Virus record (IMG/VR): IMGVR_UViG_3300037461_001229
Coordinates: 1 to 64,000 of that record
DNA length: 64,000 nt
Direction: 5' to 3' (one strand)
Source of the DNA: a virus
Taxonomy: Duplodnaviria; Heunggongvirae; Uroviricota; Caudoviricetes
This document shows positions 3,737 to 42,206 of the stretch, piece by piece; the first letter of the stretch is position 1, and the number at the start of each line of letters is the position of its first letter. The position numbers were made by a program, and so were the translations under genes. Below the pieces are notes generated by a model. The model was not told where the DNA came from and did not search any database. It saw only the letters and a program-made list of their open reading frames with translations.

Positions 3737-3758
3737 ATAAACCATTATCTGACTATAT

Positions 3759-6399: not shown

Positions 6400-6479
6400 A
6401 GATAGTTATAAAAAAGAAGCCCTCCATAATGCGCTTGAATCAGAGGCGTGGAGGGCATTGTTAATCCAAAGATAGTTAT

Positions 6480-8783: not shown

Positions 8784-8823
8784 ATAAGGGGTCTGGGTGG
8801 TGGTTTATATCATCTGGAGATAA

Positions 8824-11346: not shown

Positions 11347-11520
11347 GTCTTATACCCAATTCCTTGAATTCTACAATGACCCGCTCATCCTTAATGGTGA
11401 TCTTTTGCGGGGTAAGCATCTCTCCATCAACCCATCCAGGGCAGTCAAGGGTGTACATCGTACCGCTGGGGACGCCCTCGGCAGTGAGGTACTTATTGAA
11501 CTTAACTTTATAAATCTCTT

Positions 11521-12210
11521 TCATATCTTAGCTAATAATTGCTTCTCTTCCTCTCCAAGTATCCCGTAGAATATCTCCGGGTCTACCATAGGACGTGTCT
11601 TCCCTAATGCCGACCAATGGTTAATATTAAGGCTGGTCTTAACATCAACACATACCCCATCTACCACTGCCTTTGTAGTCACATGGGGTTTAATGGCATT
11701 GCTCATAATGGCATCTATTCCCCAGTTCTTGTCTATCGGACTGACATGCCACTTAATAGGATCAAGTGCACTATGATGGATGGCCTTAGCCACGCCAAGT
11801 ATCTGTTTACTCTGCAGCCTGGCCAGCTTTCCCTTATACATGCCTTCCGCACTATAGAAATAGATAGTATTAATCCCAATAAGTGAGACACCTCTCTCCA
11901 TTTGCTCCACTATAGCCCGCAATAGCTCTGTGGAAATAATATCATCCGACCCAAGGATAATCACATAATCCACACCAATACTCCTGAAATACCCAAAGGC
12001 CCTGTTCCATTTACGGCTAATTGGCTTATTAGGTTCGGTGAAATGCTCTATGTAGTATTTATTACACATTGGCTTGTCAGATTCTTCACTTACGCAGGCT
12101 ACCGGTATATAAGTATTGAGGTCATATCTTAGTCTTTTTATTGAGGCACAAAAGAGCTCGAACACTCTTGGCCGGCCATAGTTGATTGTGGCTATGCCAA
12201 AATTTACCAT
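11521..12210 (-). CDS. glycosyltransferase family 2-like protein
   Basis: N-terminal IATINYGRP Rossmann-like start and DYVIILGSDD acidic motif. Confidence 0.55.
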   Translation of the reverse strand: MVNFGIATINYGRPRVFELFCASIKRLRYDLNTYIPVACVSEESDKPMCNKYYIEHFTEPNKPISRKWNRAFGYFRSIGVDYVIILGSDDIISTELLRAIVEQMERGVSLIGINTIYFYSAEGMYKGKLARLQSKQILGVAKAIHHSALDPIKWHVSPIDKNWGIDAIMSNAIKPHVTTKAVVDGVCVDVKTSLNINHWSALGKTRPMVDPEIFYGILGEEEKQLLAKI

Positions 12211-12211
12211 A

Positions 12212-12487
12212 CTATTTCTTTACGACTGGCGGATTGGGATTAGCTACGGGGATACATTCCGCCCTGTAGAAATAATTATTACCAGCGGGATAATCACGGC
12301 TATCTCTTCTTTCAATCACCTTACAGACCTCAAGGATATCGTACCTCTCGTTTACCAAGAAGTTTATGGTATCACCTATCTCAAGTGGCTCCCTGGTCTC
12401 TCCAGAGATTAAAATTCTTCCTCCTTTTTCAAGCTTAGGCCATGTAAGCATATTAAAGGTCTCGTTACGTACATAATTATGTTCCAT
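12212..12487 (-). CDS. hypothetical protein
   Basis: 91-aa ORF. Confidence 0.25.
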   Translation of the reverse strand: MEHNYVRNETFNMLTWPKLEKGGRILISGETREPLEIGDTINFLVNERYDILEVCKVIERRDSRDYPAGNNYFYRAECIPVANPNPPVVKK

Positions 12488-12495
12488 GATATTTA

Positions 12496-12735
12496 CTATT
12501 TACCAAATTTATCAGTATGCCAAATATAATACCCGTGTTCTTTAACCAGGTAGTCTATCTTTCCCCATGAGCCATTACCCAAGTCCCATGATTTATTAGG
12601 GTTCAGGACGGTCTCGCCCTCCTTGGTAAGGACCTTATCCTTTAAAACCGCTACGGTTTTCCCAGAGACTCTCACGTCTCTCTTATATCTGAGTGCTCTC
12701 AGCACTTCTTCCTCTGAATGTCGTTTACGTGCCAT
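12496..12735 (-). CDS. hypothetical protein
   Basis: 79-aa basic ORF. Confidence 0.25.
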   Translation of the reverse strand: MARKRHSEEEVLRALRYKRDVRVSGKTVAVLKDKVLTKEGETVLNPNKSWDLGNGSWGKIDYLVKEHGYYIWHTDKFGK

Positions 12736-12797
12736 GTGATTTATTTAAAGTTAAACTTAACACGTCAAATGTAAAACAAGAAATCGAGATTTCCAAA

Positions 12798-13457
12798 TTA
12801 TTTGATAACTTTTTTTAATAAAAGATTATGAATACTATAATCTCTGGTGGTCTGCCAGATAGTAGAACCCTGTGGATGGGTATAGGTGAGGATATCTTTG
12901 GGGTGCGCCAGAACTGTCATGGGAATACCACGCTGCAGACAGTAGGTACTAAGCAGGATATCTGCCATGTTCTTATATTGACAATCAGAGAACCTGAAGC
13001 CAACTTTATTCGTATCAAAAGCGCACACTCCCGTTCCCACCACATCAACCCGGGTATCGGTCCCATTAGCGTTAAGGCAGTGGATGCTCCTAGACCATGA
13101 CTTATAGCCCATGAAGGGTCTTCTCATAACCTTCCCATGTAGGGAGACCACACCGCCATGGCGCCTAAGCCCATCAACCATAAGCTGTGTATAATTAGGC
13201 GAGTACTGAAGATCGTCATCACAAATAAGAGCAATACCGTCAGCCTTATCAAGAAACATAAACTTATGGGCATCACCAAGGCGGTTGTCGGAGATTACAT
13301 ATTCTACGTTACGTATACCCTGTAACCATCCGGGAACCCCGCTATAGTTGTTAAGCGCTATATAAATACTATCTACCTGGCTTGCCAAGGATTCTACGGT
13401 AGCTCTCAGGCTTCCTTCCCTTTCTGGCAAACTCGCCATATGTGCTGATATTCTCAT
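12798..13457 (-). CDS. glycosyltransferase-like protein
   Basis: LICDDDLQY acidic motif in Rossmann-like context; start overlaps the upstream ORF, so the true start is probably an internal Met. Confidence 0.4.
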   Translation of the reverse strand: MRISAHMASLPEREGSLRATVESLASQVDSIYIALNNYSGVPGWLQGIRNVEYVISDNRLGDAHKFMFLDKADGIALICDDDLQYSPNYTQLMVDGLRRHGGVVSLHGKVMRRPFMGYKSWSRSIHCLNANGTDTRVDVVGTGVCAFDTNKVGFRFSDCQYKNMADILLSTYCLQRGIPMTVLAHPKDILTYTHPQGSTIWQTTRDYSIHNLLLKKVIK

Positions 13458-14073
13458 TATTATGCATCTGACTTATTGCGTGCTCTTCCTGTGGATAGAC
13501 TAAGCTTTCCTTGACCTGGTAAAGGCTGAACTTACTATAGTGGAATCTCCTACTGATTAATGCCCCTACGCCACTCCCGGTAGCGGTAGCTATGGAACCC
13601 CTTGCCGTATGGCGGTTAGAATAGAAGAATATCTTAAAGAACTTTTCCTCGGCTAAGAAACACATATCCACCCATTGTGTCTGCCATATACTACCACAAT
13701 CTGCCGGCTTGAAATTAGTCCAGCATTTCATCCCTATCCTGTCGGCATAGAGGTTAAGACATATCTTTTGCGGGTCATTAATTTCATGCCATAGCCTTAA
13801 ACCCAATCGGGTAGCGTCAGGCATTAACATGAAATCATCCGGTAGCATGAAGTAATAATCAGCCTTGCCACGATTCCCCCATAATGCCTCTACCACCCGC
13901 AAATATCCAGTCCTTCCGTAATGGATGGGGAGATTGATAAACTTACAGCCGGTTATGATATAATCAACCTTATCACCCACAACGACTATATTGCCTAGTC
14001 CCTGAAGTGAGTCTACAAGCCGCTGACAGGATTCCCGTCTATTATAGGTAGTTATCAAGAATGTTATATCCAT
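13369..14073 (-). CDS. glycosyltransferase family 2-like protein
   Basis: FLITTYNRRESCQRLVDSL start and LPDDFML motif. Confidence 0.5.
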   Translation of the reverse strand: MDITFLITTYNRRESCQRLVDSLQGLGNIVVVGDKVDYIITGCKFINLPIHYGRTGYLRVVEALWGNRGKADYYFMLPDDFMLMPDATRLGLRLWHEINDPQKICLNLYADRIGMKCWTNFKPADCGSIWQTQWVDMCFLAEEKFFKIFFYSNRHTARGSIATATGSGVGALISRRFHYSKFSLYQVKESLVYPQEEHAISQMHNNENISTYGEFARKGRKPESYRRILGKPGR

Positions 14074-14702
14074 GTCTTTATATCTATTGACGAGATGCCG
14101 TACTCTCTCATTAATCGTTTTCTCTCAACAGAGGGATATATCCTTTGCGAAGAAAGGGTTTTATACAGCATACCGCCCCCCACTGGACGAGTATGCTTAA
14201 CGGCAATGTTATTTATCACAGCCATCTTCTCTCCAGAGCCAATTTTACTCCATACCAAATCTAGTCCCCATCCCGATACGGACTTATTGAATAACGACAA
14301 GCACTTTCTTAATGCAGAATTAGAGAAACACGGACACATTATCTCCACAAAATTAGTCATAATAATATCCGGGCCATCACTATGAGCCAGTTGTTTCCAT
14401 GACGGGAATGAATCAGGCGTGTCTGCAATAGAGGGCTGCCCCAGCCAGATATTAAATTTATTCATGGATGCAAACAAGTCATCTATCATATCCGGGGTTG
14501 CCCATATGTCTTCATCTGGCATCCAATAATAATCATAATTAAGCAGATGTGGATTATTAGTAATAGTATTAAATATCCCAGGATACTTGAATGTATTAAT
14601 TATTCTGTAATCTATAGGGTAAAGATCATAGCTATGAGTACCTTCAGCCCATAGAGAATAGTGATTATATTCACCAATAGTGGTTATAATCAGGTTTCTC
14701 AT
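14064..14702 (-). CDS. hypothetical glycan-cluster protein
   Basis: 212-aa ORF embedded between glycosyltransferases. Confidence 0.3.
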   Translation of the reverse strand: MRNLIITTIGEYNHYSLWAEGTHSYDLYPIDYRIINTFKYPGIFNTITNNPHLLNYDYYWMPDEDIWATPDMIDDLFASMNKFNIWLGQPSIADTPDSFPSWKQLAHSDGPDIIMTNFVEIMCPCFSNSALRKCLSLFNKSVSGWGLDLVWSKIGSGEKMAVINNIAVKHTRPVGGGMLYKTLSSQRIYPSVERKRLMREYGISSIDIKTWI

Positions 14703-15286
14703 TAATTATGTACAAATAACGGCTTGGGGATATATTCTACTTTTAACTTATGAGTTCTGCAATATTGAGCACACGCACAAGCATAATAACCATCCCCGTT
14801 AAAAGCAAAATTATTAAAGCCTACTTTTTTAGCTACATCTGCCCTTACGGCAAAAGAACCCACATCTATCCGATCTACCTTAACTTCTGTCTTAAGCACA
14901 TTGTATAAGAAATGGCTATGCACTGTATCAAAGTATACCATACCAACATCTGGCTTGCACCTTGTAAGTATCTCTATCGCCAGTATAGGAACATAATAAT
15001 TATCGTCATTAGTAAGTATGATAAACTCCTCTTTACTACCCGATAACTCTGATAAGAATATTTTCCTGTTTGGATGTCCGTACTGGCCATATCGCTCGGG
15101 AGATTCCCTGAATTGAATACGGGGATCATCATATAAAGAAACTGTCTTGAGTACATCTGCACTTGCATTGCCGTCATGGATAATAATTAACTCCCAGTTC
15201 GGCACTGTCTGCATTAAAAAACAATCCAGCAAAATCCTCATTGATATTGGACGCTCATAGGCGACGCTCATTACCTTAATTTTCAT
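14702..15286 (-). CDS. glycosyltransferase family 2
   Basis: VMSVAYERPISMRILLDCFLMQT ... IIIHDGNASADV ... ILTNDDNYY (DXD-type). Confidence 0.65.
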   Translation of the reverse strand: MKIKVMSVAYERPISMRILLDCFLMQTVPNWELIIIHDGNASADVLKTVSLYDDPRIQFRESPERYGQYGHPNRKIFLSELSGSKEEFIILTNDDNYYVPILAIEILTRCKPDVGMVYFDTVHSHFLYNVLKTEVKVDRIDVGSFAVRADVAKKVGFNNFAFNGDGYYACACAQYCRTHKLKVEYIPKPLFVHN

Positions 15287-15300
15287 AAAAAATATTTATA

Positions 15301-15990
15301 TTAACCATCCATTCTTAATCCATAAGTACTTCTCCTGCCGCCGGTATGCATAGCATAATCATCGGTAAGGCTTACCGCCAGTAATCCCAGGGCATGATAC
15401 GCCAGTCCTATCCGGCACTCTCTTATAGTTATAAACTCATCCGGGGTTGAATACTGGGTATATGGTCTCACCAGATCATAGGCGCTCTTACGGATCATCC
15501 CACATTGAAAGCCAAACCCAAACCAGAACTGGTTACCCCATGCATCCTGGTCCATAGAATATACTGCGGGTAATTTATATTTAACATCCCCGGCTATATA
15601 TTCTACCTTTCCAAAGGATTTTCTATGTGTAAAGCCCCTTATACCAACCCTGAATATTTTAGGATCATGCTCCATGACTGAAATACATCTTTCTATAAAT
15701 CCCGGTTTAATATAGTCAAAATCATCTTCTGAATGAAAGATATATGGCGTGGTAACCCTGGTATATGCCTTGTCGATACTCTCCACTAGCCCTATATTCT
15801 TTTCATTAATAATAAGATTATATTTTGAGTATAATCTAACCATGGAATTATGCATCTTCTTACTACCCGAATCATCTATAATGATCGTATCATTCACTGG
15901 ATATGTATTGACCTTATTAAAACTACTTACTGTACGGTGGAGTAAGTCGGGGCGATTAAATGATGTTATGACTAAAGAAACCTCGCTCAT
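15301..15990 (-). CDS. glycosyltransferase family 2
   Basis: VSLVITSFNRPDLLHRTVSSF ... IIIDDSGS ... FHSEDDFD. Confidence 0.65.
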   Translation of the reverse strand: MSEVSLVITSFNRPDLLHRTVSSFNKVNTYPVNDTIIIDDSGSKKMHNSMVRLYSKYNLIINEKNIGLVESIDKAYTRVTTPYIFHSEDDFDYIKPGFIERCISVMEHDPKIFRVGIRGFTHRKSFGKVEYIAGDVKYKLPAVYSMDQDAWGNQFWFGFGFQCGMIRKSAYDLVRPYTQYSTPDEFITIRECRIGLAYHALGLLAVSLTDDYAMHTGGRRSTYGLRMDG

Positions 15991-17270
15991 TTACGTATGA
16001 TAAATAAGACACTATTTGGGTTATTGGATTGATTTCTAAGGTCTACTACCTCGTATGGATGCCCAAATCCCCTGACTTCATTAACAAGATCATCTATCCC
16101 CCCGACACTTTCTATTATCAACATCCCGCCCTCCTTGATAAAAGGATACATGGTGCCTATAAATGCAATCTGATTAGATAAGTTACTGGGGCGGCTATCA
16201 ATAGCTATATCTACAGGGAAATCCTCAAAATAAGCAGGGGTTAATATATTAAAGTCAACAATTTTAAAGCTAACCCTGTCTGAACTAAATCTTACCATAT
16301 CAGTATTACCAGTAGGGATATGCCGGTCTGCTGTATCAATATTTCTTATCTTAGCGTGCATAAAGTAATCTTCCCATAGTTTACAACTCCCGCCCTCCGG
16401 GCAACCAACCTGAAAAACATTTATCTCCCTGTCCTTGTAGGGCAAGAATATCTCATCATAATAACTCAGGTATGATGGGAATTCATCACTGGATGTCGGA
16501 TATATCCTATACTTACCATAATCCCACAACCTTGTCAGTCCCCACCTTACATTAGAAATAACAGGATCATAAATTATTGACCCATTCAGTACCCCATAAA
16601 ACCAGTCCATTGGTCTCTGGGGCACATTAACATAACCTGTTCCCCTGTTTCTTTTAAGCACCCATTCATCATAAGACCTGGTAAAGTAATGATTAATCTT
16701 ACATATCTTTCTGGGAGAGGAGGTTAGAGACCCAAGGAAGGACTCAAAAGCCTCATTAACAACGGGACGTGAGGAATAGACGAAGTGCGGATCATTCATG
16801 TTAGTGAAGTACTGCGTATTGGCTATGGTTTTAACATACTGCTTATCTGGGGTATCTACCGTCCTCCATAGATAATTATCCCTTACCAGTCCCTCGGGCT
16901 TATTGATATGACCTGAACTTCCGTACATAGACCACGGTATGCCAAGGCCGCCAAACTGCTCATAACCCACCAATAAATCTCTTACATCTTTATGATGAAG
17001 CAATACAAGAAACTCATCAACATCACAGGTCATCATCCAGAATGGCTTAAAATCACGGAAGGTAGACAGATGAAGGTATTCCTTAAATGGGAGATCAACA
17101 TCTATTCTTTTAACTATTACCCTATCACCCCATTTTGCCTCAACCGGGATAGTGCTTTTATGATCATAGATAAGCACCCTCTCAAATCCTATAGACATAT
17201 GATAATCCACCCACTCGTCTATATAACTATTGTCATCCCTGACCATAGTTGCTATCATTGTATATGTCAT
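15987..17270 (-). CDS. two-domain glycosyltransferase-like protein (GT-A-like N-terminus plus unassigned C-terminal domain)
   Basis: N-terminal MIATMVRDDNSYIDEWVDYHMSIGFERVLIYDHKS resembles GT92/GT-A nucleotide-sugar binding starts; C-terminal 150 aa unassigned. Confidence 0.35.
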   Translation of the reverse strand: MTYTMIATMVRDDNSYIDEWVDYHMSIGFERVLIYDHKSTIPVEAKWGDRVIVKRIDVDLPFKEYLHLSTFRDFKPFWMMTCDVDEFLVLLHHKDVRDLLVGYEQFGGLGIPWSMYGSSGHINKPEGLVRDNYLWRTVDTPDKQYVKTIANTQYFTNMNDPHFVYSSRPVVNEAFESFLGSLTSSPRKICKINHYFTRSYDEWVLKRNRGTGYVNVPQRPMDWFYGVLNGSIIYDPVISNVRWGLTRLWDYGKYRIYPTSSDEFPSYLSYYDEIFLPYKDREINVFQVGCPEGGSCKLWEDYFMHAKIRNIDTADRHIPTGNTDMVRFSSDRVSFKIVDFNILTPAYFEDFPVDIAIDSRPSNLSNQIAFIGTMYPFIKEGGMLIIESVGGIDDLVNEVRGFGHPYEVVDLRNQSNNPNSVLFIIRK

Positions 17271-17275
17271 ATCCC

Positions 17276-18187
17276 CTATATTTTCCTTACTGCGTGGCCA
17301 AACCCCGTTTTACCAAACTGATTGCCATTATATAACATATGATAATGGCCATTATACTTAAGCACCGATGCATATTCGATCATCTCAGAGTCCCAGCCCT
17401 CGTCCGATGTAGATATATCTATTGGTTCTCTTCTGAAATTCTCTCCATTATTAGATTCGGCATATCCCAGCATATAGTGCTGTCCATTCTTATCCCTATA
17501 ACCCTCCGGGCCTCTTACAGAGTACCACATCTTATACACGCCTCCGTCTTTTATAACCCACGGCCTGGCAAATGACTCCCCTTGATATTTAGATTTAAAA
17601 CAAGGCTTGGCTACCGGAGTCCAGTTTATCCCATCATATGAATAGGCCGTCTTTATTACAAAGGTGGGCTCCATCCTTCCGTTATACATCTCCCAGCTTG
17701 TAAATGAAATAAACCACATGCGGAACGTGTCATAATCATCTCGTATCACCATAGGCGCCGACACGCATATTGGATCATGTATCGACCGCTCCATAATGGG
17801 ACCATCAAACCTTTTCTCTACAACATCCCCATTTACCACGGCCAATCCTATGCTTAACGAATACGGCACCGATCCTCCCTTATTCCATCCGCAATAATAG
17901 AGATACTTGTAATTATCTGTATCTACTATGGATGTCATGGTTATGCCATTATCGTCAAAAGTCCCGGGAGCTCCTGGGGTAAATAATGGTTCCCTGTCTA
18001 CACTAAGAATATTAGATGGATTCCCGGCCTCTACGTCCATACGAAAAGGCAGGCTCACCACCTCCTTAGTCCTGGATGTAAAATATATTCTCCATACCTT
18101 ATCACTTATAATATCTATAAATGCATCCTGAGCATAGCCCGTCCCCAGGATGTCACAGGCGTATATTAATCCTTTTTTTTGCCACAT
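17276..18187 (-). CDS. 5-bladed beta-propeller glycosidase / glycoside phosphorylase-like protein (GH43/GH130-like)
   Basis: repeated W/Y..DG... blade-like segments (GTFDDNGITMTSIVD, IKDGGVYKMWYS, GYAESNNGENF). Confidence 0.45.
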   Translation of the reverse strand: MWQKKGLIYACDILGTGYAQDAFIDIISDKVWRIYFTSRTKEVVSLPFRMDVEAGNPSNILSVDREPLFTPGAPGTFDDNGITMTSIVDTDNYKYLYYCGWNKGGSVPYSLSIGLAVVNGDVVEKRFDGPIMERSIHDPICVSAPMVIRDDYDTFRMWFISFTSWEMYNGRMEPTFVIKTAYSYDGINWTPVAKPCFKSKYQGESFARPWVIKDGGVYKMWYSVRGPEGYRDKNGQHYMLGYAESNNGENFRREPIDISTSDEGWDSEMIEYASVLKYNGHYHMLYNGNQFGKTGFGHAVRKI

Positions 18188-18190
18188 ATA

Positions 18191-19138
18191 TTAAAAAATA
18201 AAGTCCTCCATATATCTTATTGCTTTCCTTCCTGTTAGTATAGACTTATCAGTCATCTGCGGGCGTATAAAATTAATAAAATAATCGATACTCATTTTTG
18301 CCTCATTATACATAAAGAGCGCCCTTATTGATGTTGCTGAAGATATTCGCGGATTTATCTCCAGCAGCTTAGGCATGCCGTCCTGCATCCTGAATTGGAA
18401 GTTGGTGGGACCAATGGGCTTGAATATCTTGGCTAGCTCGATTAAAACATTACCAAAATTCCTGTCCTCTACCTCTGCCTCCTGAGTAAATCCCTCTTTG
18501 GATAGTTTTCTTTTTAGTGGGAAATAATCTACCAAGCTGGATTTCTTATCGAAAAAACCAGATACCGTGTACTCCTCTTCTTCTGTTCCTATAATGGGCT
18601 GTATCATAAGATCGCATCCCCGTATCTTATCCTGATAAAACCCAAAGTCCTTTTCGTCTTTTATTTTTATTATCCCACGGGAACCATAACCATGCCTGGG
18701 TTTTAGGAGAAAGGGGAAGGGATAGGGACTATCTCTGGTTCCGATTACGGTTGGGATAGCGTATTGCGGGCTATTATCCATGAGTTTCTCATAGAAAGCC
18801 CACTTATCATAGCACAGGTCAATAAGCTCACTGTTATTCAAAAGGGGGAATGCTCTTGTAGATAGCAAAACATTTCTTGCTTTATTCCACTTATACATAT
18901 CACATTCTATGCTTGGTATTATCATATCAACATGGTATTTGTCTATGATAGTACATAACTGCTCTATATAACCAGGATGTTCGGTAGGAAGTATCTTCTC
19001 TACATAATCGCAGAATGCCGTAGCTATAGAGTAATCATATATTGTTGTCCCTATGAGAAGATGATCGGTATCAGCAAGAGATTTTAGTATACCATAACCC
19101 ACTACGCCCGACGCACCGGATACCAGAATTGTTCTCAT
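18191..19138 (-). CDS. ATP-grasp domain enzyme
   Basis: LLKPRHGYGSRGIIKIKD ... KLLEINPRISSATSI, the conserved ATP-grasp C-terminal motif (E-x-N-x-R). Confidence 0.65.
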   Translation of the reverse strand: MRTILVSGASGVVGYGILKSLADTDHLLIGTTIYDYSIATAFCDYVEKILPTEHPGYIEQLCTIIDKYHVDMIIPSIECDMYKWNKARNVLLSTRAFPLLNNSELIDLCYDKWAFYEKLMDNSPQYAIPTVIGTRDSPYPFPFLLKPRHGYGSRGIIKIKDEKDFGFYQDKIRGCDLMIQPIIGTEEEEYTVSGFFDKKSSLVDYFPLKRKLSKEGFTQEAEVEDRNFGNVLIELAKIFKPIGPTNFQFRMQDGMPKLLEINPRISSATSIRALFMYNEAKMSIDYFINFIRPQMTDKSILTGRKAIRYMEDFIF

Positions 19139-19662
19139 AATACAACATCTCCTTCCTGATAAAACAAGCTTCTATCGGAAAAATAAATAACCGGGTCATT
19201 GTCACGGATAGCCCCCCTTAACATCCTATAGGCATCCTGCGGAGATGTCGGGGTGACCACCTTTAGGCCGGAGATCATACGAAACATATCGTGGGGTCTA
19301 TCAGAATGCTGAGGACCCATACCTTCCATTTCTGCACACATTATCGTGACAGGCAGATCAATATTATGCATGGATCGCATTTTCGAAGCTACATTTACTA
19401 TCTGGTCCATTGCCATGTACAGGAAGTTAGCAACAGTCAGGTCTACAATGGGGCGTAATCCGGTCATAGACGCACCTATAGCCATGCCTACGATAGTATA
19501 CTCCATCAGGGGAACGTCTATTACCCTGGAGGGAAATTCTTCGTATAAGCCCCCCGTATATCCATAAAGATTATATCTTATGTCTTCCCCAAATAAGACA
19601 ACTGAATCGTCAGATTTTAACTCCTGGTATAATGCCTCTCTTATAGCTTCTCCGTATTTCAT
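19135..19662 (-). CDS. TPP-dependent dehydrogenase E1 beta subunit, N-terminal (pyrimidine-binding) domain only
   Basis: MKYGEAIREALYQELKSDDSVVLFGEDI ... typical E1-beta/transketolase Pyr-domain start; 175 aa, roughly half of a normal E1 beta; ATGA overlap with ATP-grasp gene. Confidence 0.6.
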   Translation of the reverse strand: MKYGEAIREALYQELKSDDSVVLFGEDIRYNLYGYTGGLYEEFPSRVIDVPLMEYTIVGMAIGASMTGLRPIVDLTVANFLYMAMDQIVNVASKMRSMHNIDLPVTIMCAEMEGMGPQHSDRPHDMFRMISGLKVVTPTSPQDAYRMLRGAIRDNDPVIYFSDRSLFYQEGDVVL

Positions 19663-20498
19663 TGTTCTATAGATTTAAACGCATCTTCTACTAGCTCCAT
19701 TTCCTGTTCTATAATATGACCAATGGCATAATAGCCAATAGGGTCTTCGTTTTCCCGAAAATATTGCGCCACGATCTCGTTTCGATAACCTGTCTCCTTC
19801 ATGCGTTCATAGGCCGCCCCTTCTTGATGTTCACGGAACCTGTGTGTATTTACTTCCAGTAGATAGGGCCTATTCTCCCTCACGCGCCCTATCGCCTCTT
19901 TCGCTGCCGTATTCACCTCAACTACATTCTGACCATCAACCTCCCAATAGTCCATCCTATAGGCCGAAGTGAATTCTTCCAGATTAATATGGGTTGTATT
20001 GATAGTAGTCACGGCTACATGATTGTTTTCTAAAACAAAAAGAACTGGCAATCCCCATCTAGATGAAATATTCATACACTCATGGAATGTTCCCTCATTG
20101 ACTGCTCCATCTCCAAAGAAGACACAAACCACCCGATTTTCTTTCTTAAACTTAGAGGCATATGCCATCCCGCAGGCGAGAGAAAGTCCAGACCCGACGA
20201 TTGCGGTAGATAAGATAAACCCAAGAGAGGGGTCATTGACATGCATTGATCCTACACCATGAACTATCTGGCGTACAAGTCTCTTCAGGTCGGTACCGCG
20301 GGCTATGATATGACCATGAGACCGGTGGTTGCCTATAATATAATCATCTTTTCCCAAGGCGGAACAAACTCCGACAGAAACAGCCTCCTGTCCTATACAT
20401 GAATGAACCGGACCTTTTATTAATCCCTTTAATTTATATTCAGAAACCTTTTCTTCAAATAGTCGTATCCGAACCATCATCCTTAATAAATCATTCAT
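19659..20498 (-). CDS. TPP-dependent dehydrogenase E1 alpha subunit (acetoin/pyruvate dehydrogenase E1-like)
   Basis: LLRMMVRIRLFEEKVSEYKLKGLIKGPVHSCIGQEAVSVG ... GDGAVNEG ... NN, a TPP-binding motif (GDG...N). Confidence 0.7.
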   Translation of the reverse strand: MNDLLRMMVRIRLFEEKVSEYKLKGLIKGPVHSCIGQEAVSVGVCSALGKDDYIIGNHRSHGHIIARGTDLKRLVRQIVHGVGSMHVNDPSLGFILSTAIVGSGLSLACGMAYASKFKKENRVVCVFFGDGAVNEGTFHECMNISSRWGLPVLFVLENNHVAVTTINTTHINLEEFTSAYRMDYWEVDGQNVVEVNTAAKEAIGRVRENRPYLLEVNTHRFREHQEGAAYERMKETGYRNEIVAQYFRENEDPIGYYAIGHIIEQEMELVEDAFKSIEQ

Positions 20499-21157
20499 AT
20501 AAGCGTATATTTAGTTAACATAGTTCTGATGTCTCCCGGGCTGTGATTCATAATAACGTCTATGATAGATAAGTTAGGCAGATTTTCATCAGACTTCAAG
20601 AAAAATAAATCTATCCCCTGTTGTTTAAATTCCTCCTTGTCATATAAAGACTGGCCACCTATAGCATTAACATAAGATGTAGCCTTAAGACGCTTACAGA
20701 TATCTATAACCTTATCTTTCCCATGCAGGGAACAGTCCTTTTCTATTTTTGAGGAGATGATAAAGTTAATATCAATACCTAAATATCCGAAAAGAATCTG
20801 GTGTGTCTGAAGTATGTAGTTAAAGAGATTATCGCATTGAGAATGGAATATCTCATAAATAACCCAATGTGCTTGTTCAAAATAAGGATGATTAGAATAT
20901 GCCTGCACAAACGTCTTATACAACTTTTGCCTATTTGCGCCCACCTCTATCTCATTTATCTTCTTAAAAGAGCTTACTCCACGCAACTCAAGAGTAAATC
21001 TATAATTATTCCTATTAAGCTGTATATTATTCCTATTTATCCAACCCTGCTTAATGTAAGTAACATCATCATAATAAACAAAAGTATCTACTGCTTTCAT
21101 TAATTGAAAGTATCCCAGGTAGGGAAGAAAATATGGTTGCATTATACCCAGCCTCAT
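20495..21157 (-). CDS. WbqC-like family protein
   Basis: N-terminus MRLGIMQPYFLPYLGYFQLM is the hallmark WbqC-family start. Confidence 0.65.
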   Translation of the reverse strand: MRLGIMQPYFLPYLGYFQLMKAVDTFVYYDDVTYIKQGWINRNNIQLNRNNYRFTLELRGVSSFKKINEIEVGANRQKLYKTFVQAYSNHPYFEQAHWVIYEIFHSQCDNLFNYILQTHQILFGYLGIDINFIISSKIEKDCSLHGKDKVIDICKRLKATSYVNAIGGQSLYDKEEFKQQGIDLFFLKSDENLPNLSIIDVIMNHSPGDIRTMLTKYTLI

Positions 21158-21780
21158 GTCTTATATACTGGGAATTTAGACAGGTCTGGATATGGTAATT
21201 CTATGTCTTCCATATCTCTCTTAGTTCCATCCTGGTTATAAAACCCAAGCATCTGCTGTAGTCCTATAGCGGCCAGAATATGAGGGAGATAATAATTATG
21301 GCCTAACATATCAAGATTATCATCATGATACGAGCATTCCCTCCTCCCACTATAACGAAATCTCTTAAGCCATAAATAGGCAGTATAATCATCGGTAAGT
21401 ATAGCACCTCCCTTGCCTATCTTAAGGCGCTTCCATTGTCCCGTGAAAGACAAGCACATGAATGTACCAGGGATATACATATCGGCGGTAAATCTAAGCG
21501 CCGAATCCCATACCCGAGTTGGTTTTAATTGATATGCACCTTTTAGTAATCGCGGGGATGGCTCAAAGACAACCTTTCCTCCAGCCCATATTATTTCGCA
21601 GGGCACGGAAGGATATGTATGGGAAGGAATGGTTATTTCCTTGCCCTTTATATCCTCATACATCAATGCCATAAAAAGAGCATTGCTCTGATTATCTACG
21701 GTCACACAATAAGGAGCCCCGGTGTAGTCCGAGATCATCTCCTCAAATGCTTTGGTTATGTCATGTGGATTCATGGGCAA
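21154..21780 (-). CDS. DegT/DnrJ/EryC1/StrS-like aminotransferase, compact form
   Basis: FTGQWKRLKIGKGGAILTDD matches the PLP-lysine region (F..H..K....GEGG...T.D); only 208 aa so possibly truncated. Confidence 0.45.
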   Translation of the reverse strand: MPMNPHDITKAFEEMISDYTGAPYCVTVDNQSNALFMALMYEDIKGKEITIPSHTYPSVPCEIIWAGGKVVFEPSPRLLKGAYQLKPTRVWDSALRFTADMYIPGTFMCLSFTGQWKRLKIGKGGAILTDDYTAYLWLKRFRYSGRRECSYHDDNLDMLGHNYYLPHILAAIGLQQMLGFYNQDGTKRDMEDIELPYPDLSKFPVYKT

Positions 21781-22364
21781 TATTTTTTATAATTCACCAA
21801 AATTGTGCTAACATCCGATCTGGTACAGGTGTCACTTTTATACTGCCTCTGTGAGCATAGGATCGGCCATGTGACAAAGACATTATAATTAGGCATTATC
21901 TTTTCGCTAAGGAACACGTCCCATTTACCTATCTCATCACGATCCTCGGCATTTAGTATGTCATTTATTACTGTACTATGCGGGTTCCACATAATAGCAT
22001 GAGTAGTCCATGCTTTAGACAGCCTATAGAGATGAGGAGAATATCTTTGCTGTGGCCCTTGCGGGCTCGCTCCAAGGTATAGGACATCCCAGTTTTTGGG
22101 CAGTTCCTCCATGGCAAAGAGCAAGAAATCAGTAAACTCCTCCCTATTATAAAGGAATATCACATCGTCTTCATAGACTACGCTTATCTCTTTTGTGATG
22201 TAGATATTCATAAGGCACTTAAGGTGACTCTGACGACAGCCCACCCATCCCGGCTTAGTGACATAAGCGGATATGCGCTTTACAGTTATCCCCATCCTCT
22301 CAAACTCGTTAAGGACATTTATCTGTCTTTCGAGCCTATCGTCCCGATTAATACAATAATTCAT
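21771..22364 (-). CDS. glycosyltransferase family 25 (LPS/LOS-type)
   Basis: MNYCINRDDRLERQ...; VGCRQSHLKCL and VYEDDVIF motifs as in Lic2A/LgtB-type GT25 enzymes. Confidence 0.65.
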   Translation of the reverse strand: MNYCINRDDRLERQINVLNEFERMGITVKRISAYVTKPGWVGCRQSHLKCLMNIYITKEISVVYEDDVIFLYNREEFTDFLLFAMEELPKNWDVLYLGASPQGPQQRYSPHLYRLSKAWTTHAIMWNPHSTVINDILNAEDRDEIGKWDVFLSEKIMPNYNVFVTWPILCSQRQYKSDTCTRSDVSTILVNYKKYCP

Positions 22365-29620: not shown

Positions 29621-29639
29621 AATGATAATATTTAAGTGA

Positions 29640-34658: not shown

Positions 34659-34666
34659 TAACTTTG
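34659..34666 (+). promoter_or_regulatory. Bacteroidota -7 element upstream of pdxH
   Basis: taactttg. Confidence 0.4.
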
Positions 34667-34672
34667 ACGCAA

Positions 34673-35257
34673 ATGATAAAGAATCCATTTACAAGATTTA
34701 AGGTCTGGTATAACTTAAGAACTAAGACCTATAGCGGGGATGCATCATATATGATCCTATCCACTGCTGATTCTTCCGGCGATGTGTCATCCAGGGTGGT
34801 ACTACTGAAATCATTTGACGAGGATGGTTTTGTCTTCTACACCAACTATAATAGTAAGAAAGGAAGGCATCTTGATGATAACCCAAGGGCAGCGCTGCTG
34901 TTCTATTGGCCCGAGCTGGATAAGCAGATACGTATAGAAGGGGATGTTGAGCGGGTACCGGAGGATGTCTCTAATGATTATTTTACCACCAGACCCAGGA
35001 TAAGTAAGGTTGGTGCTCATGCCTCAAGACAAAGCAAGGTATTAAGCAGCAGAATCAGGCTTATTTTCAGGGTGGCAAGATATATATTTAAATACCCCAG
35101 GGAGGTTCCGAGGCCGTTACACTGGGGTGGCTACCGGCTAAAGCCCAATATGTTTGAGTTCTGGGATAACGGCAAATATAGACTACATGACAGAACCCGC
35201 TATAGGCTCAAGGTTGGCTCAGTGGGATCGTGGGTTATTGAAAAACTTTATCCTTAA
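34673..35257 (+). CDS. pdxH: pyridoxamine 5'-phosphate oxidase
   Basis: RVVLLKSFDEDGFVFYTNYNSKKG...NPRAALLFYWPELDKQIRIEG...FEFWDNGKYRLHDRTRYR...WVIEKLYP aligns along the full length with bacterial PdxH including the C-terminal FW..G...RLHDR block; start moved from TTG 34664 to ATG 34673. Confidence 0.85.
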   Translation: MIKNPFTRFKVWYNLRTKTYSGDASYMILSTADSSGDVSSRVVLLKSFDEDGFVFYTNYNSKKGRHLDDNPRAALLFYWPELDKQIRIEGDVERVPEDVSNDYFTTRPRISKVGAHASRQSKVLSSRIRLIFRVARYIFKYPREVPRPLHWGGYRLKPNMFEFWDNGKYRLHDRTRYRLKVGSVGSWVIEKLYP

Positions 35258-40812: not shown

Positions 40813-41172
40813 ATGGAGGGGCAATACGTTTTAGACGGCTGTGAATATGAGGATTTAGAATCCTATGTGTGTACTGGAATATTTGGCTTTTGCGGATGTG
40901 TTGGCGAGTCGGCGTTACGTATTATAGATAAGGCTCTAGATCATTTTTCTACCTGCAGAGATAAGGGCACTTATTGGGACGACTTAGTAAAGGAGGTATT
41001 TAATGGCGACGAAGGTTCGGCCTATATCGTATCAAGCCTTCTTGATAATACTGAGCTAATAGAGCACGGCATGGCTATAAGGGGATCATGGCTCACGGAT
41101 AAGGGGACAGAAGTCCATTCTGACATTAAAAAAATAATTTCTCTATGGGATAATCAATCTCAGGTTACATGA
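40813..41172 (+). CDS. hypothetical protein
   Basis: 119-aa ORF with Cys pair CTGIFGFCGC. Confidence 0.25.
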   Translation: MEGQYVLDGCEYEDLESYVCTGIFGFCGCVGESALRIIDKALDHFSTCRDKGTYWDDLVKEVFNGDEGSAYIVSSLLDNTELIEHGMAIRGSWLTDKGTEVHSDIKKIISLWDNQSQVT

Positions 41173-42206
41173 TATCAGTAATAATACCATTTAAGAATGA
41201 TTTCAGCACTATAGAGGGCGTCCTGCATAATGTCTACCTGGGCATACAGCAAGATGACCTGGAGATTATCCTTGTGAACGACGGGAGCAAGCATACCAAT
41301 ACCAGGTTCCGCCCCATAGAACCCGCTAAAGACTTCTCCTTAAGAACCCAGAGATACGTTAAGGTAATCAATAACCCCATGGGCTATGGTGTGGGATACT
41401 CGTTCGATAGAGGTGCAGAGATAGCGCGTGGGGACATACTAGTACTCATGGGAGCCGACGTTTTCCCCAGGAGTGGTTGGGATAGTAAAGTAAAGGATGC
41501 CGTCCAAAGCAACCCTAATACACTTGGTTGTGCTACCTGCATAGGCTTGAATCCAGACAGGAAGAACCTGGATGATCCTAAAAATAAGATGAGGTATGGA
41601 GCAGACCTGTTATTTACCTATGGGCCGGAAGACACGCCGAAGGGGAGCGGGCTAAGGGACATCCATAATTTCTCTAACCTCTTCCGTGGCAGGTGGAGGA
41701 CAGATAAGGTAAGTGATTCGCCATGCGATATACCGTGCCTCATGGGTGCTTTCTATTTTACAAGCAGGGAGTACTATAGGTTGCTTGCCGGTTGGGACAC
41801 GAGGAGTGGAAATCATTGGAGGGGGCACCGTGCCTGGGGGCACCTGGAGCCATATATTAGCCTTAAGTCATGGTTAGTGGGCGGTGGCTGTACACTATAC
41901 CCGGATATCCAGGCCGGGCATGTTTTTGCTCGCATAACAGACAGGACTAAGAAATGGGACGGGGGTGTCCGTAACGAGAGTGATAGGTACTGGAATCAAC
42001 TCTTTATGCTTGAGACTATGATTATGGATACTGATCTCCAGCTAAAGCTCAATAACTTCCTTAAACCAAGAAAGAACCTTGGTATTGCTCGCAAGTGGAT
42101 AAAACAACACTATGATACTATTGAGCAGGTTAGGGCCGCCAATAGTCTTCTATTTAAGAACACTCCAGAGATATTCACAGAGAAATTTGGGTATAAACTA
42201 GACTAA
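41169..42206 (+). CDS. glycosyltransferase family 2
   Basis: MISVIIPFKNDFSTIEGVLHNV...EIILVNDGSKH ... LMGADVF (DXD-like). Confidence 0.65.
   Translation: MISVIIPFKNDFSTIEGVLHNVYLGIQQDDLEIILVNDGSKHTNTRFRPIEPAKDFSLRTQRYVKVINNPMGYGVGYSFDRGAEIARGDILVLMGADVFPRSGWDSKVKDAVQSNPNTLGCATCIGLNPDRKNLDDPKNKMRYGADLLFTYGPEDTPKGSGLRDIHNFSNLFRGRWRTDKVSDSPCDIPCLMGAFYFTSREYYRLLAGWDTRSGNHWRGHRAWGHLEPYISLKSWLVGGGCTLYPDIQAGHVFARITDRTKKWDGGVRNESDRYWNQLFMLETMIMDTDLQLKLNNFLKPRKNLGIARKWIKQHYDTIEQVRAANSLLFKNTPEIFTEKFGYKLD

Follow-up and report, generated by a model that had tools for sequence, protein, structure and literature searches.

The phage segment at 11521-22364 carries a miniaturised, phage-adapted version of a sugar cassette which, judged by sequence homology, is a conserved component of bacterial O-antigen/CPS loci and is kept across a clade of related phages. 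The acceptor of the resulting glycan is most likely a protein of the phage itself, rather than a host lipid-linked glycan or DNA. More specifically, the island enzymes may O-glycosylate a phage fibre protein in the cytoplasm; this reading is given about an even chance, with both the acceptor and its incorporation into the virion putative.

Genome setting and layout of the island

The window, that is, the whole 64,000-nt stretch analysed, belongs to a phage of Bacteroidota with a genome of ~86 kb, of which about 15-22 kb lies outside. It contains phage hallmark genes (TerL, portal and a DNA polymerase exonuclease subunit), and no host genes were seen in it or in the source contig stretches read. 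It also codes for an NT5C nucleotidase and a MazZ-like dATP/dGTP diphosphohydrolase. Genes that bear on the setting are:

2801-3736: tyrosine integrase
9597-10550: PD-(D/E)XK exonuclease, island flank
22437-22742, + strand: GroES (Cpn10 7e-8)
23458-23829: VRR-NUC, weak (1.4e-3, below cut-off)
34664..35257, + strand: pyridoxamine-5'-phosphate oxidase of PLP salvage (Pfam PNPOx_N 7.4e-23, PNP_phzG_C 4.6e-16)

The first-pass annotation had placed a glycan-biosynthesis block within a phage, flanked by a recombination exonuclease and by GroES/VRR-NUC. HMM families and phage genes on both sides bear this out for the block, the exonuclease and GroES, but the VRR-NUC match is below threshold. The alternative of an ordinary CPS locus on a host chromosome fails, since the flanks are phage genes.

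The block is, as first described, a contiguous and tightly packed run: 16 ORFs, all on the minus strand, tile 11521-22364, with 4-nt overlaps at 21157/21154, 20498/20495, 19662/19659, 19138/19135, 15990/15987 and 11524/11521, and a further one at 21774/21771 if the ATG start of the NCBI call is taken for the DegT ORF (206 aa). The sole sizeable gap (12736-12797) holds a promoter-like motif, TACATTTG, at 12766-12773, which precedes two small ORFs. The island sits without gaps in a replication/recombination block and is not moron-like beside the integrase. Its GC and GC3 are both 0.409, against 0.444-0.458 and 0.47-0.49 in other phage genes; the codon-usage distance from those genes is 0.13-0.14, against 0.087 between two non-island sets. 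The composition check proposed at first pass has returned a mild difference from the rest of the phage and no sharp foreign island.

The sugar cassette and its bacterial counterpart

Family calls were made with Pfam at curated bit cut-offs, and NCBIfam, PHROG and PDB comparisons were added for some ORFs. The first gene of the island and the core module (21780-17276) are:

21771..22364, - strand: GT25-like GT-A glycosyltransferase, 197 aa (Pfam GT25 1.1e-4, 22.6 bits vs 24-bit cut-off)
21154..21780, - strand: mini-DegT, truncated sugar aminotransferase-like, 208 aa, or 206 aa if started at the ATG (21774) (Pfam DegT 1e-20)
20495..21157, - strand: WbqC-family protein (Pfam WbqC 2.4e-55)
19659..20498, - strand: TPP-dependent E1 alpha-like subunit, 279 aa (Pfam E1_dh 2.8e-50)
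19135..19662, - strand: E1 beta-like subunit of 175 aa with only the pyrimidine-binding domain (Pfam Transket_pyr 3.1e-30)
18191..19138, - strand: ATP-grasp ligase (Pfam ATPgrasp_Ter 6e-8, ATP-grasp_3 3e-7)
17276..18187, - strand: GH130-like five-bladed propeller (Pfam Glyco_hydro_130 4.8e-7, 29.5 bits vs 26-bit cut-off)

The GT25-like gene is divergent from GroES, and its homologues adjoin GroES at the equivalent position in L014 (40% identity) and L026 (47%). DegT, E1 alpha and E1 beta had been assigned to the right families at first pass, but all three are truncated, phage-specific forms. The mini-DegT aligns to PDB sugar aminotransferases in two blocks; compared with the DegT of Vibrio and L015, it retains the Asp of D-S-A and the Lys of SFxxxK and is shorter by about 36 residues at the N-terminus, about 22 internally and about 100 at the C-terminus. 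This short form is found in six phage contigs. The E1 alpha-like protein contains the GDG-X26-NN TPP motif and shares 45-50% identity with its bacterial cassette counterparts, which are 324-327 aa long. E1 beta measures 323-326 aa with Transketolase_C in bacterial cassettes, against 175-177 aa in the phage relatives, and the phage protein has no Pfam match to Transketolase_C. The WbqC-family protein is predicted to have a class-I aaRS/BshC-like adenylate-forming ligase fold. The ATP-grasp ligase is 51-61% identical to bacterial cassette copies and matches an NCBIfam PRK12767-type model at 4e-50 (170 bits, under the 218-bit cut-off). The GH130-like propeller, the most conserved cassette member, matches a PDB beta-1,2-mannan phosphorylase (5.7e-4) and is 62-65% identical to the Vibrio and metagenome copies, with a mean column identity of 78% in the alignment.

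In Vibrio CP011464.1 the gene order is DegT-WbqC-E1a-E1b-ATP-grasp-Metallophos-GH130-like, placed between Wzz/dehydratases/NTP-transferase and Wzx/GTs. Metagenomic loci hold the same members, but with DegT after the GH130-like gene, and the cassette is also present in Bacteroidota, Firmicutes, Selenomonadales and Melainabacteria MAGs. The likeness to an O-antigen or capsule locus noted early on is thus upheld: polysaccharide loci of Vibrio and other bacteria contain direct homologues of the six-gene core (DegT-WbqC-E1ab-ATP-grasp-GH130-like) in matching order. An ALS/YerE-type TPP enzyme replaces E1ab in L031; a TPP enzyme is obligate in the cassette, yet replaceable. The phage core differs from its bacterial counterpart in the 208-aa DegT, the E1 beta without C-domain and the absence of the metallophosphatase, which occurs in bacterial cassettes only. 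At least five distinct lineages of phage-like contigs (L014, L017, L018/19, L020/21 and L024) conserve this miniature form, and a neighbour-joining tree places the phage GH130-like proteins in one monophyletic group.

The rest of the island (17270-11521) is made up of:

15987..17270, - strand: GT + sugar O-methyltransferase-like fusion, 427 aa (Glyco_tranf_2_4 9.7e-10; Methyltransf_31 7.9e-6)
15301..15990, - strand: GT2 glycosyltransferase, 229 aa (Pfam GT2 1.2e-11)
14702..15286, - strand: GT-A-like protein, 194 aa (Pfam GT2 1.7e-4, 22 bits vs 23.3-bit cut-off)
14064..14702, - strand: DUF707-like protein, putative GT-A (Pfam DUF707 5e-5, 23.1 bits vs 24.1-bit cut-off)
13369..14073, - strand: 234-aa protein, its likeness to GT-A seen only by eye (motifs ITTYNR... 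and PDD)
12798..13457, - strand: weak GT2-like protein (Pfam GT2 9.6e-3)
12496-12735 and 12212-12487, - strand: two small ORFs, 79 and 91 aa, no family
11521..12210, - strand: weak GT2-like protein with which the block ends (Pfam GT2 6e-3)

In the fusion protein, a GT2_4/GT92-like GT (residues 1-242) is joined to a methyltransferase-like domain (residues 267-398) that matches MycE (3ssm) and is just under the Methyltransf_31 threshold (26.1 bits vs 27). All phage relatives have the GT half, at 70-77% identity, with their methyltransferases (Methyltransf_24) encoded by separate genes. The GT2 at 15301-15990 (NCBIfam TIGR04440 1.2e-13, 51.3 bits, under the 70-bit cut-off) is 59-73% identical in L014, L017, L020 and L024, and the GT-A-like protein at 14702-15286 is kept in all phage relatives (45-71% in L014, L017, L018, L019, L020 and L024). 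The DUF707-like protein and the GT2-like 12798-13457 belong to the variable part of the island, with homologues in L014 (the former there only, 48%; the latter 39%), where 11521-12210 also has one (43%). The 234-aa protein matches no Pfam family up to E=5 and no PHROG up to E=0.01, and the two small ORFs match no Pfam family even at E<=5.

Above-threshold HMM support was obtained for DegT, WbqC, E1 alpha, the E1 beta N-domain, ATP-grasp, the GH130-like propeller, the GT half of the fusion and one GT2. The families proposed at first pass were mostly correct, but GT25 and several 'GT2' assignments are below curated thresholds; in all, five GT-A calls are affected (GT25, the GT2-like 14702-15286, 12798-13457 and 11521-12210, and the DUF707-like 14064-14702), several of them nonetheless kept in relatives. 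The sugar pathway, first described as complete, is not: the island contains no nucleotidyltransferase or 4,6-dehydratase, and Pfam scan and hydropathy reveal no flippase (Wzx), polymerase (Wzy), Wzz, priming phosphoglycosyltransferase or ABC transporter. Transmembrane segments are absent from all island ORFs (highest 19-residue Kyte-Doolittle hydropathy 1.73).

A candidate initiating transferase and acceptor

Two parts relevant to the target, a GT and a poly-Thr-tailed fibre paralogue, lie beyond the block that the first-pass annotation covered, and are followed by a related gene:

41169..42206, + strand: ppGalNAc-T-like (GT27-like) GT-A, candidate initiating protein O-glycosyltransferase, outside 11521-22364
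42534..43067, + strand: 177-aa protein with a fibre-type N-terminal adaptor domain and the C-terminal tail TTTTTTTTEEREQ, candidate glycan acceptor
43093..44232, + strand: paralogue with the adaptor domain and a Fib_succ_major domain, a putative binding module (Pfam Fib_succ_major 9.3e-25; alignment with 42534-43067)

The transferase is GT27-like by sequence, profile and structure, with a protein O-GalNAc transferase as its best structural match; it is clade-specific and has neither the DxH motif nor a lectin domain. The candidate acceptor holds the sole run of at least six S/T residues among window ORFs of at least 80 aa, and its orthologues in L026, L027 and L042 likewise end in S/T tails. 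It matched no PHROG or Pfam family. Among 89 representative homologues, the C-terminal modules are swappable, and in about 26 the adaptor domain is followed immediately by a poly-T tail or linker. This modular architecture of the adaptor family is tail-fibre-like. The poly-T segment could merely be a flexible linker. The motif TATCTTTG, common to TerL, portal and other late genes, lies 61 nt upstream and is probably a late-type promoter motif of the tailed gene. No signal peptide is present in its translation, so any glycosylation would have to be cytoplasmic.

The order GT, S/T-tailed adaptor protein, paralogue, TerL, portal is kept in L026, L027 and L042. L026 has an SDR dehydratase/epimerase beside its GT25-like gene and L027 has a different GT island; the glycan locus thus seems to change from phage to phage without loss of the initiating GT and acceptor. 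The GT27-like/poly-T pair lies 19 kb from the island, on the opposite strand, and the tie between them is circumstantial.

Target of the glycan

What, then, would the glycan be built on? It is conceivable, though on balance unlikely, that the modified-sugar cassette and the soluble GTs of the phage work, at the inner membrane face, on undecaprenyl-linked O-antigen, capsule or O-glycan precursors of the host, whose flippase and polymerase would export the altered glycan. During lysogeny or late in infection, this would block superinfection or reduce the number of progeny lost on cell debris. The cassette is known only from bacterial O-antigen/CPS loci, the island seems to vary among relatives as serotype loci do, and the integrase (2801-3736) makes lysogenic conversion possible. 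Peripheral GTs of ordinary bacterial O-antigen loci commonly lack transmembrane segments, so an all-soluble island is compatible with action on host lipid-linked intermediates. However, every export and priming component named above is absent, and the host machinery would have to accept a glycan made by six to nine GTs. The location within a replication/recombination block is not that of a moron near the integrase, and a core that is miniaturised and vertically conserved throughout the phage clade looks unlike a host-range-specific conversion module. The conserved pair of ppGalNAc-T-like GT and Thr tail would also be left unexplained.

Alternatively, the module could yield a soluble glycoconjugate or glycolipid acting in the infected cell (metabolite, inhibitor or osmolyte), or glycosylate phage and host proteins non-specifically. 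This is improbable: although every enzyme is soluble and the ATP-grasp protein matches ATPgrasp_Ter, a family originally reported from a predicted pathway for a nucleoside-like metabolite, the bacterial homologues lie in export-competent polysaccharide loci, multiple GTs imply an acceptor-bound oligosaccharide, and nothing points to a specific small-molecule product.

T-even phages glycosylate DNA bases and thereby evade restriction. That the GTs described here place a complex glycan on a hydroxymethylated or otherwise activated phage DNA base for the same end is the least probable reading, despite the position of the island among DNA-metabolism genes, the nucleotidase and the MazZ-like enzyme, and N6_N4 DNA methyltransferases beside or inside the island in relatives. 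In 5hmC-glycan clusters, LPS-enzyme-related phage GT-A enzymes put mono- to trisaccharides on 5hmC (Pyle et al., bioRxiv 10.1101/2023.12.21.572611). Yet neither a thymidylate-synthase-type hydroxymethylase nor a TET/JBP dioxygenase turned up in the scanned window ORFs or in the loci of relatives, whose methyltransferases are of N6/N4 and not C5 type, and the conserved GT best matches a protein O-GalNAc transferase in structure. About nine GTs, an O-methyltransferase and an unusual-sugar cassette also exceed, to our knowledge, what any known DNA glycan needs. Among the targets first proposed, the virion or a phage protein is therefore favoured, the host surface is retained at lower probability, and DNA is without support.

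If a phage fibre protein is the acceptor, the island would be a phage-encoded, wholly cytoplasmic glycan assembly line. Its core would make a modified sugar by steps that are all putative: the mini-DegT would aminate a host-supplied NDP-keto-sugar, two ATP-dependent ligases (WbqC and ATP-grasp) would elaborate the product, and the stand-alone TPP enzyme would give a 2-oxo-acid-derived unit. The ligase role of WbqC is drawn from a predicted fold like that of BshC/MshC-type amino-acid:amino-sugar ligases. The pyridoxamine-5'-phosphate oxidase possibly supports the PLP-dependent mini-DegT, a presumed tie to the island. An oligosaccharide would be built and trimmed by the 17270-11521 part, with its sugar O-methyltransferase and about eight soluble transferases of the GT-A type. 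The ppGalNAc-T-like enzyme would initiate O-glycosylation at the poly-threonine tail of the fibre-adaptor protein, and the island enzymes would then extend the glycans. The virion would, in that case, bear a mucin-like glycosylated fibre.

Layout and phage setting of the glycan island

Sixteen ORFs tile the minus strand between 11521 and 22364, joined mostly by 4-nt overlaps of the ATGA type or set 1-14 nt apart, with the sole real gap within the island at 12736-12797. This bears out the packed run with 4-bp overlaps described in the first-pass annotation. Its family assignments hold for the eight ORFs listed here, whereas the GT25 (21771-22364), three more GT2-like calls and one DUF707-like call fall slightly under the Pfam thresholds. 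The ORFs 13369-14073, 12496-12735 and 12212-12487 have no Pfam or PHROGs match.

Island ORFs with Pfam matches above the curated threshold
21154-21780, minus strand: DegT, 1e-20 (74.7 bits against a 19.8-bit cut-off)
20495-21157, minus strand: WbqC, 2.4e-55
19659-20498, minus strand: E1_dh, TPP-dependent E1 alpha (E1a), 2.8e-50
19135-19662, minus strand: Transket_pyr, E1 beta (E1b), 3.1e-30
18191-19138, minus strand: ATP-grasp families, 6e-8 and 3e-7
17276-18187, minus strand: GH130, 4.8e-7 (29.5 bits against a 26-bit cut-off, spanning just 58 residues)
15987-17270, minus strand: Glyco_tranf_2_4, 9.7e-10; the same protein matches Methyltransf_31 slightly under the cut-off (7.9e-6, 26.1 against 27 bits)
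15301-15990, minus strand: GT2, 1.2e-11

The claim that the island is carried by a phage is upheld by its surroundings. It is flanked by phage genes (a PD-(D/E)XK exonuclease, an opposite-strand GroES and a weak VRR-NUC match), the window also encodes TerL, portal and a polymerase exonuclease subunit, and no host genes are seen in the window or in the stretches covered of the matching contig JAOQIC010000012.1. A sharp compositional island is ruled out: GC3 is 0.41 in the island against 0.47-0.49 elsewhere, and the shift in GC/GC3 and codon usage is merely mild. The window and JAOQIC010000012.1 (GCA_025490955.1) correspond with small indels. Their offset varies (+11 at ~1.2 kb, -25 at ~9.6 kb, +71 at ~19.7 kb) and gene lengths around 12.2-12.7 kb differ, so the window represents a slightly different assembly or strain.

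Just below the island, 10528-11346 (minus strand) encodes a 272-aa protein with homologues in three relatives (L018, L024 and L042) that show a faint Pfam trace of Cpn10; besides the GroES at 22437-22742, this may be another co-chaperonin-like protein. The early region encodes a Band_7/SPFH-family protein (6480-7328, minus strand; PHROG 'lipoprotein' 3.5e-60, precomputed Pfam Band_7).

A bacterial cassette and its short phage form

The island core (21780-17276) has a counterpart in bacterial O-antigen/CPS loci. On Vibrio chromosomes (CP011464.1, L013), Wzz, a UDP-sugar dehydrogenase, two SDR dehydratases and an NTP-transferase precede a cassette that runs DegT, WbqC, E1a, E1b, ATP-grasp, metallophosphatase and GH130-like, followed by Wzx and GTs. 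Metagenomic loci hold the same cassette members, but with DegT downstream of the GH130-like gene. When one genome from each species was scanned, the GH130-like gene and cassette partners were found in MAGs of Oribacterium, Mobilitalea, Selenomonadales and Gastranaerophilales, and a 2.6-kb Mariniphaga fragment carries ATP-grasp alone beside the GH130-like gene. The phage and bacterial genes are homologous and share their order, with identities of 40-50% (WbqC), 45-50% (E1a), 51-60% (E1b), 51-61% (ATP-grasp) and 58-65% (GH130-like). Wzz, Wzx, the NTP-transferase, the dehydratases and the metallophosphatase are confined to the bacterial loci, within which the phage GTs have no homologues.

WbqC and the GH130-like protein form a tight pair. 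E1ab is absent from three of the scanned MAG loci, and in L031, from the MAG of an uncultured bacterium, a single-chain ALS/YerE-type TPP enzyme stands between the GH130-like and ATP-grasp genes in its place. This swap is a non-orthologous displacement within the cassette, indicating that a TPP enzyme belongs to the pathway while its type is replaceable. The WbqC and GH130-like pair is duplicated in L031, where the tandem copies (within 2210-12272) have 441-443-aa GT2s between them. The cassette of WbqC, GH130-like protein, TPP enzyme and ATP-grasp is defined here as a widespread element of bacterial polysaccharide loci, whatever its target in the phage. No function is assigned to WbqC or the cassette in the literature searched, where the WbqC papers are non-functional and do not co-mention ATP-grasp, and NCBIfam holds no specific model for either.

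Both this bacterial cassette and its miniaturised, vertically inherited phage form are newly identified here. DegT measures 208 aa in the phage against 359-383 aa in bacterial cassettes, and E1a 279 aa against 324-327 aa; the phage E1b (175 aa) lacks, by Pfam, the Transketolase_C domain that bacterial E1b carries, and the metallophosphatase is missing. The mini-DegT lacks ~36 N-terminal, ~22 internal and ~100 C-terminal residues and so falls short of a complete fold-type-I architecture (~360-400 aa). Its D-S-A and SFTGQWK segments nevertheless align with DAAHA and SFHATK of the cassette DegTs, and with 7kz3, keeping the Asp that contacts the pyridine N and the PLP-binding Lys of SFxxxK. If functional, the 208-aa DegT and the E1b without its C-domain would mark dispensable parts of such enzymes.

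The short forms occur, with order kept, in at least five distinct metagenomic phage-like contig lineages (L014/L028, L017, L018/19, L020/21 and L024), whose E1a is 55-75% identical to the window copy; the short DegT is kept in six phage contigs. Furthermore, the phage GH130-like copies form a single clade in an unbootstrapped neighbour-joining tree, and phage and bacterial versions of this protein share 62-65% identity. Taken together, this points to a single acquisition with vertical inheritance ever since, and away from a recently gained moron. Downstream, most phage contigs keep a GT92-like GT and a 194-aa GT-A-like protein, and most also a 229-aa GT2, for which L018/L019 have no match. The O-methyltransferases differ among the contigs, as do the GT25-like, the DUF707-like and the remaining GT-like genes.

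Beyond these relatives, the island has no DNA match by megablast among 50,697 phage records, and the whole cassette is in none of the deposited phage records searched. Among cultured or deposited phages, WbqC occurs in one 5.8-kb human-faecal fragment only. IMG/VR locus scans with E1a or the GH130-like protein singly found nothing, and the alignment-based scan returned a single contig, the same as L014; TerL relatives in IMG/VR are 4.6-7.3-kb fragments, of no use for synteny. The acoA matches of 'Acinetobacter phage MD-2021a' were rejected as a bacterial acetoin dehydrogenase operon (lipA, E2, E3) in a mislabelled record.

What chemistry might the cassette perform? The E1a reads, in translation, a TPP motif of GDG, 26 residues and NN. 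E1ab lacks an E2-binding domain, and the window ORFs scanned include neither E2 nor E3; the pair would therefore act by itself as a TPP decarboxylase or carboligase rather than within a dehydrogenase complex. WbqC matches PF08889 along its full length (188 bits, positions 1-216 of 218), and its predicted fold is BshC-like, a likeness that we count as new. Identity to BshC and MshC (the bacillithiol and mycothiol cysteine ligases) and to class-I aminoacyl-tRNA synthetase catalytic domains is 10-13%, and WbqC is half the size. A BshC-like ligase would be a testable function for WbqC, and the ATP-grasp enzyme may act as a second ligase. The GH130-like protein matches a beta-1,2-mannan phosphorylase in the PDB (5.7e-4, residues 190-288), and the methyltransferase domain of 15987-17270 resembles the sugar O-methyltransferase MycE. 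Since nucleotidyltransferase and 4,6-dehydratase genes are absent from the island, the NDP-keto-sugar precursor would have to be supplied by the host. PLP supply may be maintained by the phage pyridoxamine-5'-phosphate oxidase, perhaps feeding the PLP-dependent mini-DegT. This PLP salvage enzyme (34664-35257, plus strand; PNPOx_N 7e-23 with a PNP_phzG_C dimerisation region) is an unusual auxiliary gene.

A GT27-like enzyme and a putative poly-threonine-tailed fibre adaptor

Away from the island, two neighbouring genes encode a candidate initiating enzyme and a candidate acceptor:
41169-42206, plus strand: GT27-like (polypeptide GalNAc-transferase-like) glycosyltransferase
42534-43067, plus strand: putative fibre-adaptor protein with a poly-threonine tail

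CAZy GT27 polypeptide GalNAc-transferases initiate mucin-type O-glycosylation. These animal and apicomplexan enzymes are the best match of 41169-42206 by sequence (best in the PDB, E 3.8e-6, residues 3-280), by profile (T12, 6.5e-18, Gal/GalNAc-T motif region included) and by fold, at an identity of 19%. The phage protein retains the GT-A catalytic domain, its Gal/GalNAc-T motif and a C-terminal His that binds metal, whereas the DxH metal motif is not kept, the DCH of T12 aligning with G-S-D. Unlike the type-II membrane-anchored GT27 enzymes, the 345-aa phage protein has no hydrophobic N-terminus or signal anchor, and only helices, with no ricin-type lectin domain, lie beyond the catalytic domain. 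The family numbers 129 members among 5.8 billion proteins, all metagenomic, with the largest contigs at 74-88 kb. Cultured or deposited phages gave no meaningful match, and the BFVD viral structure library holds no close analogue of the model (best TM-score 0.60).

The second gene lies 330 nt downstream and is preceded by the octamer TATCTTTG. Its 177-aa product, for which Pfam and PHROGs give no match, has the C-terminal end TTTTTTTTEEREQ, the only run of at least six Ser/Thr residues among window ORFs of at least 80 aa. Exhaustive search yielded 89 representative homologues. In nearly all matches a ~155-aa adaptor domain opens the protein or lies close to its N-terminus, and exchangeable modules come after it: Fib_succ_major, FN3 with beta-helix, SGNH-esterase-like, LamG-like and small C-terminal modules (the FN3, beta-helix, SGNH-like and LamG-like ones judged by eye from sequence). 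By this architecture the family is a putative group of tail-fibre or receptor-binding proteins. In ~26 of the 89 homologues a poly-Thr/Ser tail or linker comes straight after the adaptor domain; the tail could be a mere linker.

Three relatives (L026, L027 and L042) keep the order GT, S/T-tailed protein, paralogue, TerL and portal. Beside GroES, where the edge of its island is covered, L026 has a GT25-like gene and then an SDR dehydratase/epimerase, and L027 carries a different GT island. The candidate initiating GT and acceptor are thus conserved, and the glycan genes seem to differ from one relative to the next. A further new element is that, in this clade of Bacteroidota phages, a GT27-like enzyme appears to be paired with a fibre-adaptor family whose tail is mucin-like and conserved.

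A second candidate acceptor was considered and rejected: action of the GT25 on a collagen-like tail fibre is ruled out, as the repeats of 28598-29695 are SNSGxxGLA nonapeptides, not G-X-Y. This minus-strand gene encodes a 365-aa DUF7666 protein with PHROG tail-fibre matches and ~18 tandem SNSG(D/Y/N)xGLA nonapeptides. Among the structural genes, an endonuclease VII/HNH-like gene lies at 55110-55946 (plus strand) and a PD-(D/E)XK endonuclease (48889-49386, plus strand; PDDEXK_5 8e-22) between TerL and portal. GIY-YIG/NUMOD or HNH genes sit at comparable positions in L014, L026 and L042, and all of these are probably homing endonucleases. From ~60430 to 64000 (plus strand), one frame of more than 1193 codons continues past the window end and presumably encodes a giant tail or fibre protein.

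In the window, 97 matches to TAnnTTTG, the Bacteroidota -7 promoter motif, stand against 52 +/- 7 expected. One form of this motif, TATCTTTG, precedes by 16-61 nt GroES, the poly-Thr gene, TerL, portal and several structural genes (for example at 22409, 42466, 44313, 49708, 52366, 55063, 55958 and 58291, plus strand), is also found in L026 and L027, and resembles a signature of late phage promoters. TerL shows a distant relationship (23-25% identity) with its counterparts in Flavobacterium, Cellulophaga and Tenacibaculum phages, the phage genes have no Shine-Dalgarno sequences, and the phage GH130-like group lies next to the Mariniphaga copy in the tree. With the TAnnTTTG excess, this makes a Bacteroidota host a reasonable inference.

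Possible destinations of the glycan

Where would the glycan be attached? The phage encodes GTs, and the candidate acceptor combines a conserved C-terminal S/T tail with an N-terminal domain family that appears tail-fibre-like. At roughly even confidence, we favour a reading in which a phage fibre-type protein is O-glycosylated in the cytoplasm and the island would provide both an unusual sugar and the enzymes for elongation; the tie between the island and this candidate acceptor is circumstantial.

The first-pass annotation had likened the island to an O-antigen or capsule locus. The likeness extends to an operon that joins nucleotide-sugar modification genes to several GTs, with a core syntenic with Vibrio and MAG polysaccharide loci, but not to the priming, export and polymerase genes of a full Wzx/Wzy-type locus: none of the 16 island ORFs matches an initiating phosphoglycosyltransferase, Wzx, an ABC transporter, Wzy or a chain-length regulator such as Wzz. 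Island proteins have no transmembrane segments (hydrophobic 19-mer maximum 1.73, Kyte-Doolittle). Remodelling of the host surface by the island seems to us somewhat unlikely, even with the natural home of the cassette in O-antigen/CPS loci, an integrase in the window and the normal solubility of peripheral GTs in its favour. Serotype conversion by GtrABC/Oac likewise involves glycan-modifying genes in an integrase-bearing phage; it uses 1-3 genes including membrane proteins (the GtrA flippase, GtrC) beside att/int, whereas the island encodes 16 soluble proteins inside the replication block. The GT at 41169-42206 matches the GtrB-like PHROG at merely 7.7e-4. The tyrosine integrase (2801-3736, plus strand; Phage_integrase 2e-17), beside DUF5675 and DUF6808 proteins, stands out in a genome that otherwise resembles a large lytic phage.

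A broader and decidedly speculative version of fibre glycosylation, which we hold improbable as a whole, would apply to a clade of ~75-90-kb Bacteroidota phages that build a mucin-like glycosylated tail fibre in the cytoplasm. The eukaryote-like, polypeptide-GalNAc-transferase-type enzyme would start O-glycans on the poly-threonine tail, and a swappable glycan island, here including the miniaturised bacterial unusual-sugar cassette, would complete them. The phage would use the glycan as a shield, or else as an adhesin or bait directed at surface proteins of the host that bind glycans, and the variable island would do here what variable receptor-binding domains do elsewhere among phages.

DNA glycosylation is very improbable: phage 5hmC-glycan clusters (Pyle et al., bioRxiv 10.1101/2023.12.21.572611) and T4 alpha/beta-GT resemble the island in having LPS-type-derived phage GT-A enzymes near DNA-metabolism genes, and this phage encodes NT5C and a MazZ-like dNTP pyrophosphohydrolase, but the base-activating partners that define such clusters, 5mYOX/TET or ThyS hydroxymethylase, were not found among the scanned window ORFs (64 kb of a 79-86-kb genome) or in the relatives' loci. 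The NT5C-type deoxyribonucleotidase (3.8e-15) and the MazZ-like dATP/dGTP diphosphohydrolase N-domain protein (4e-12) are adjacent (39607-40511, plus strand); the pair hints at manipulation of the purine dNTP pool, no PurZ is seen in the window, and L020/L021 have a related dATP-dGTP_PPHyd gene close to the cassette. Relatives carry N6_N4/MT-A70 DNA methyltransferase genes inside or beside glycan islands or the GT27-like gene (L014 8748-9380, between E1b and ATP-grasp; L024 7419-8111; L027 5450-7882; L042 8030-8683 and 9447-10001). These insertions may reflect a plastic region or a DNA-modification link.

Phage GT islands as such are already known. For glycosylation of a fibre-type protein, the documented cases of virus-encoded protein glycosylation so far are giant viruses and mycobacteriophages. 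Giant-virus glycosylation is virus-encoded, host-independent and cytoplasmic, and combines several soluble GTs with a fused GT-methyltransferase and with a DegT-type aminotransferase that serves an amino sugar. A064R of chlorovirus PBCV-1 is a GT-GT-methyltransferase, and mimivirus has fibril glycan gene clusters. Hosts there are eukaryotic, sugars and acceptors are others, and to our knowledge no sequence relationship with the phage glycan enzymes is detectable past the superfamily level. Mycobacteriophages are reported to glycosylate virion subunits at their C-termini, in the cytoplasm, with phage GTs and methyltransferases (Freeman et al., 2023, as described in PMC12619734). Phage GTs and methyltransferases are common to both, and the candidate acceptor here also has its tail at the C-terminus. 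By the same account (PMC12619734), the acceptors there are capsid and tail tube, whereas here the candidate is a poly-Thr-tailed fibre-adaptor paralogue; host phylum and enzymes are unrelated, and the present phage adds an unusual-sugar cassette and a GT27-like candidate initiating enzyme.

If the glycan goes onto the phage fibre, Bacteroidota phages would join the known cases of virus-encoded protein glycosylation, using enzymes of another kind. They would offer a genetically compact cytoplasmic O-glycosylation system of initiating GT, short acceptor tag and modular elongation genes, with possible use in glyco-engineering. Relatives keep the initiating GT and the acceptor but seem to have different glycan genes, a hint that a displayed glycan is under diversifying selection.
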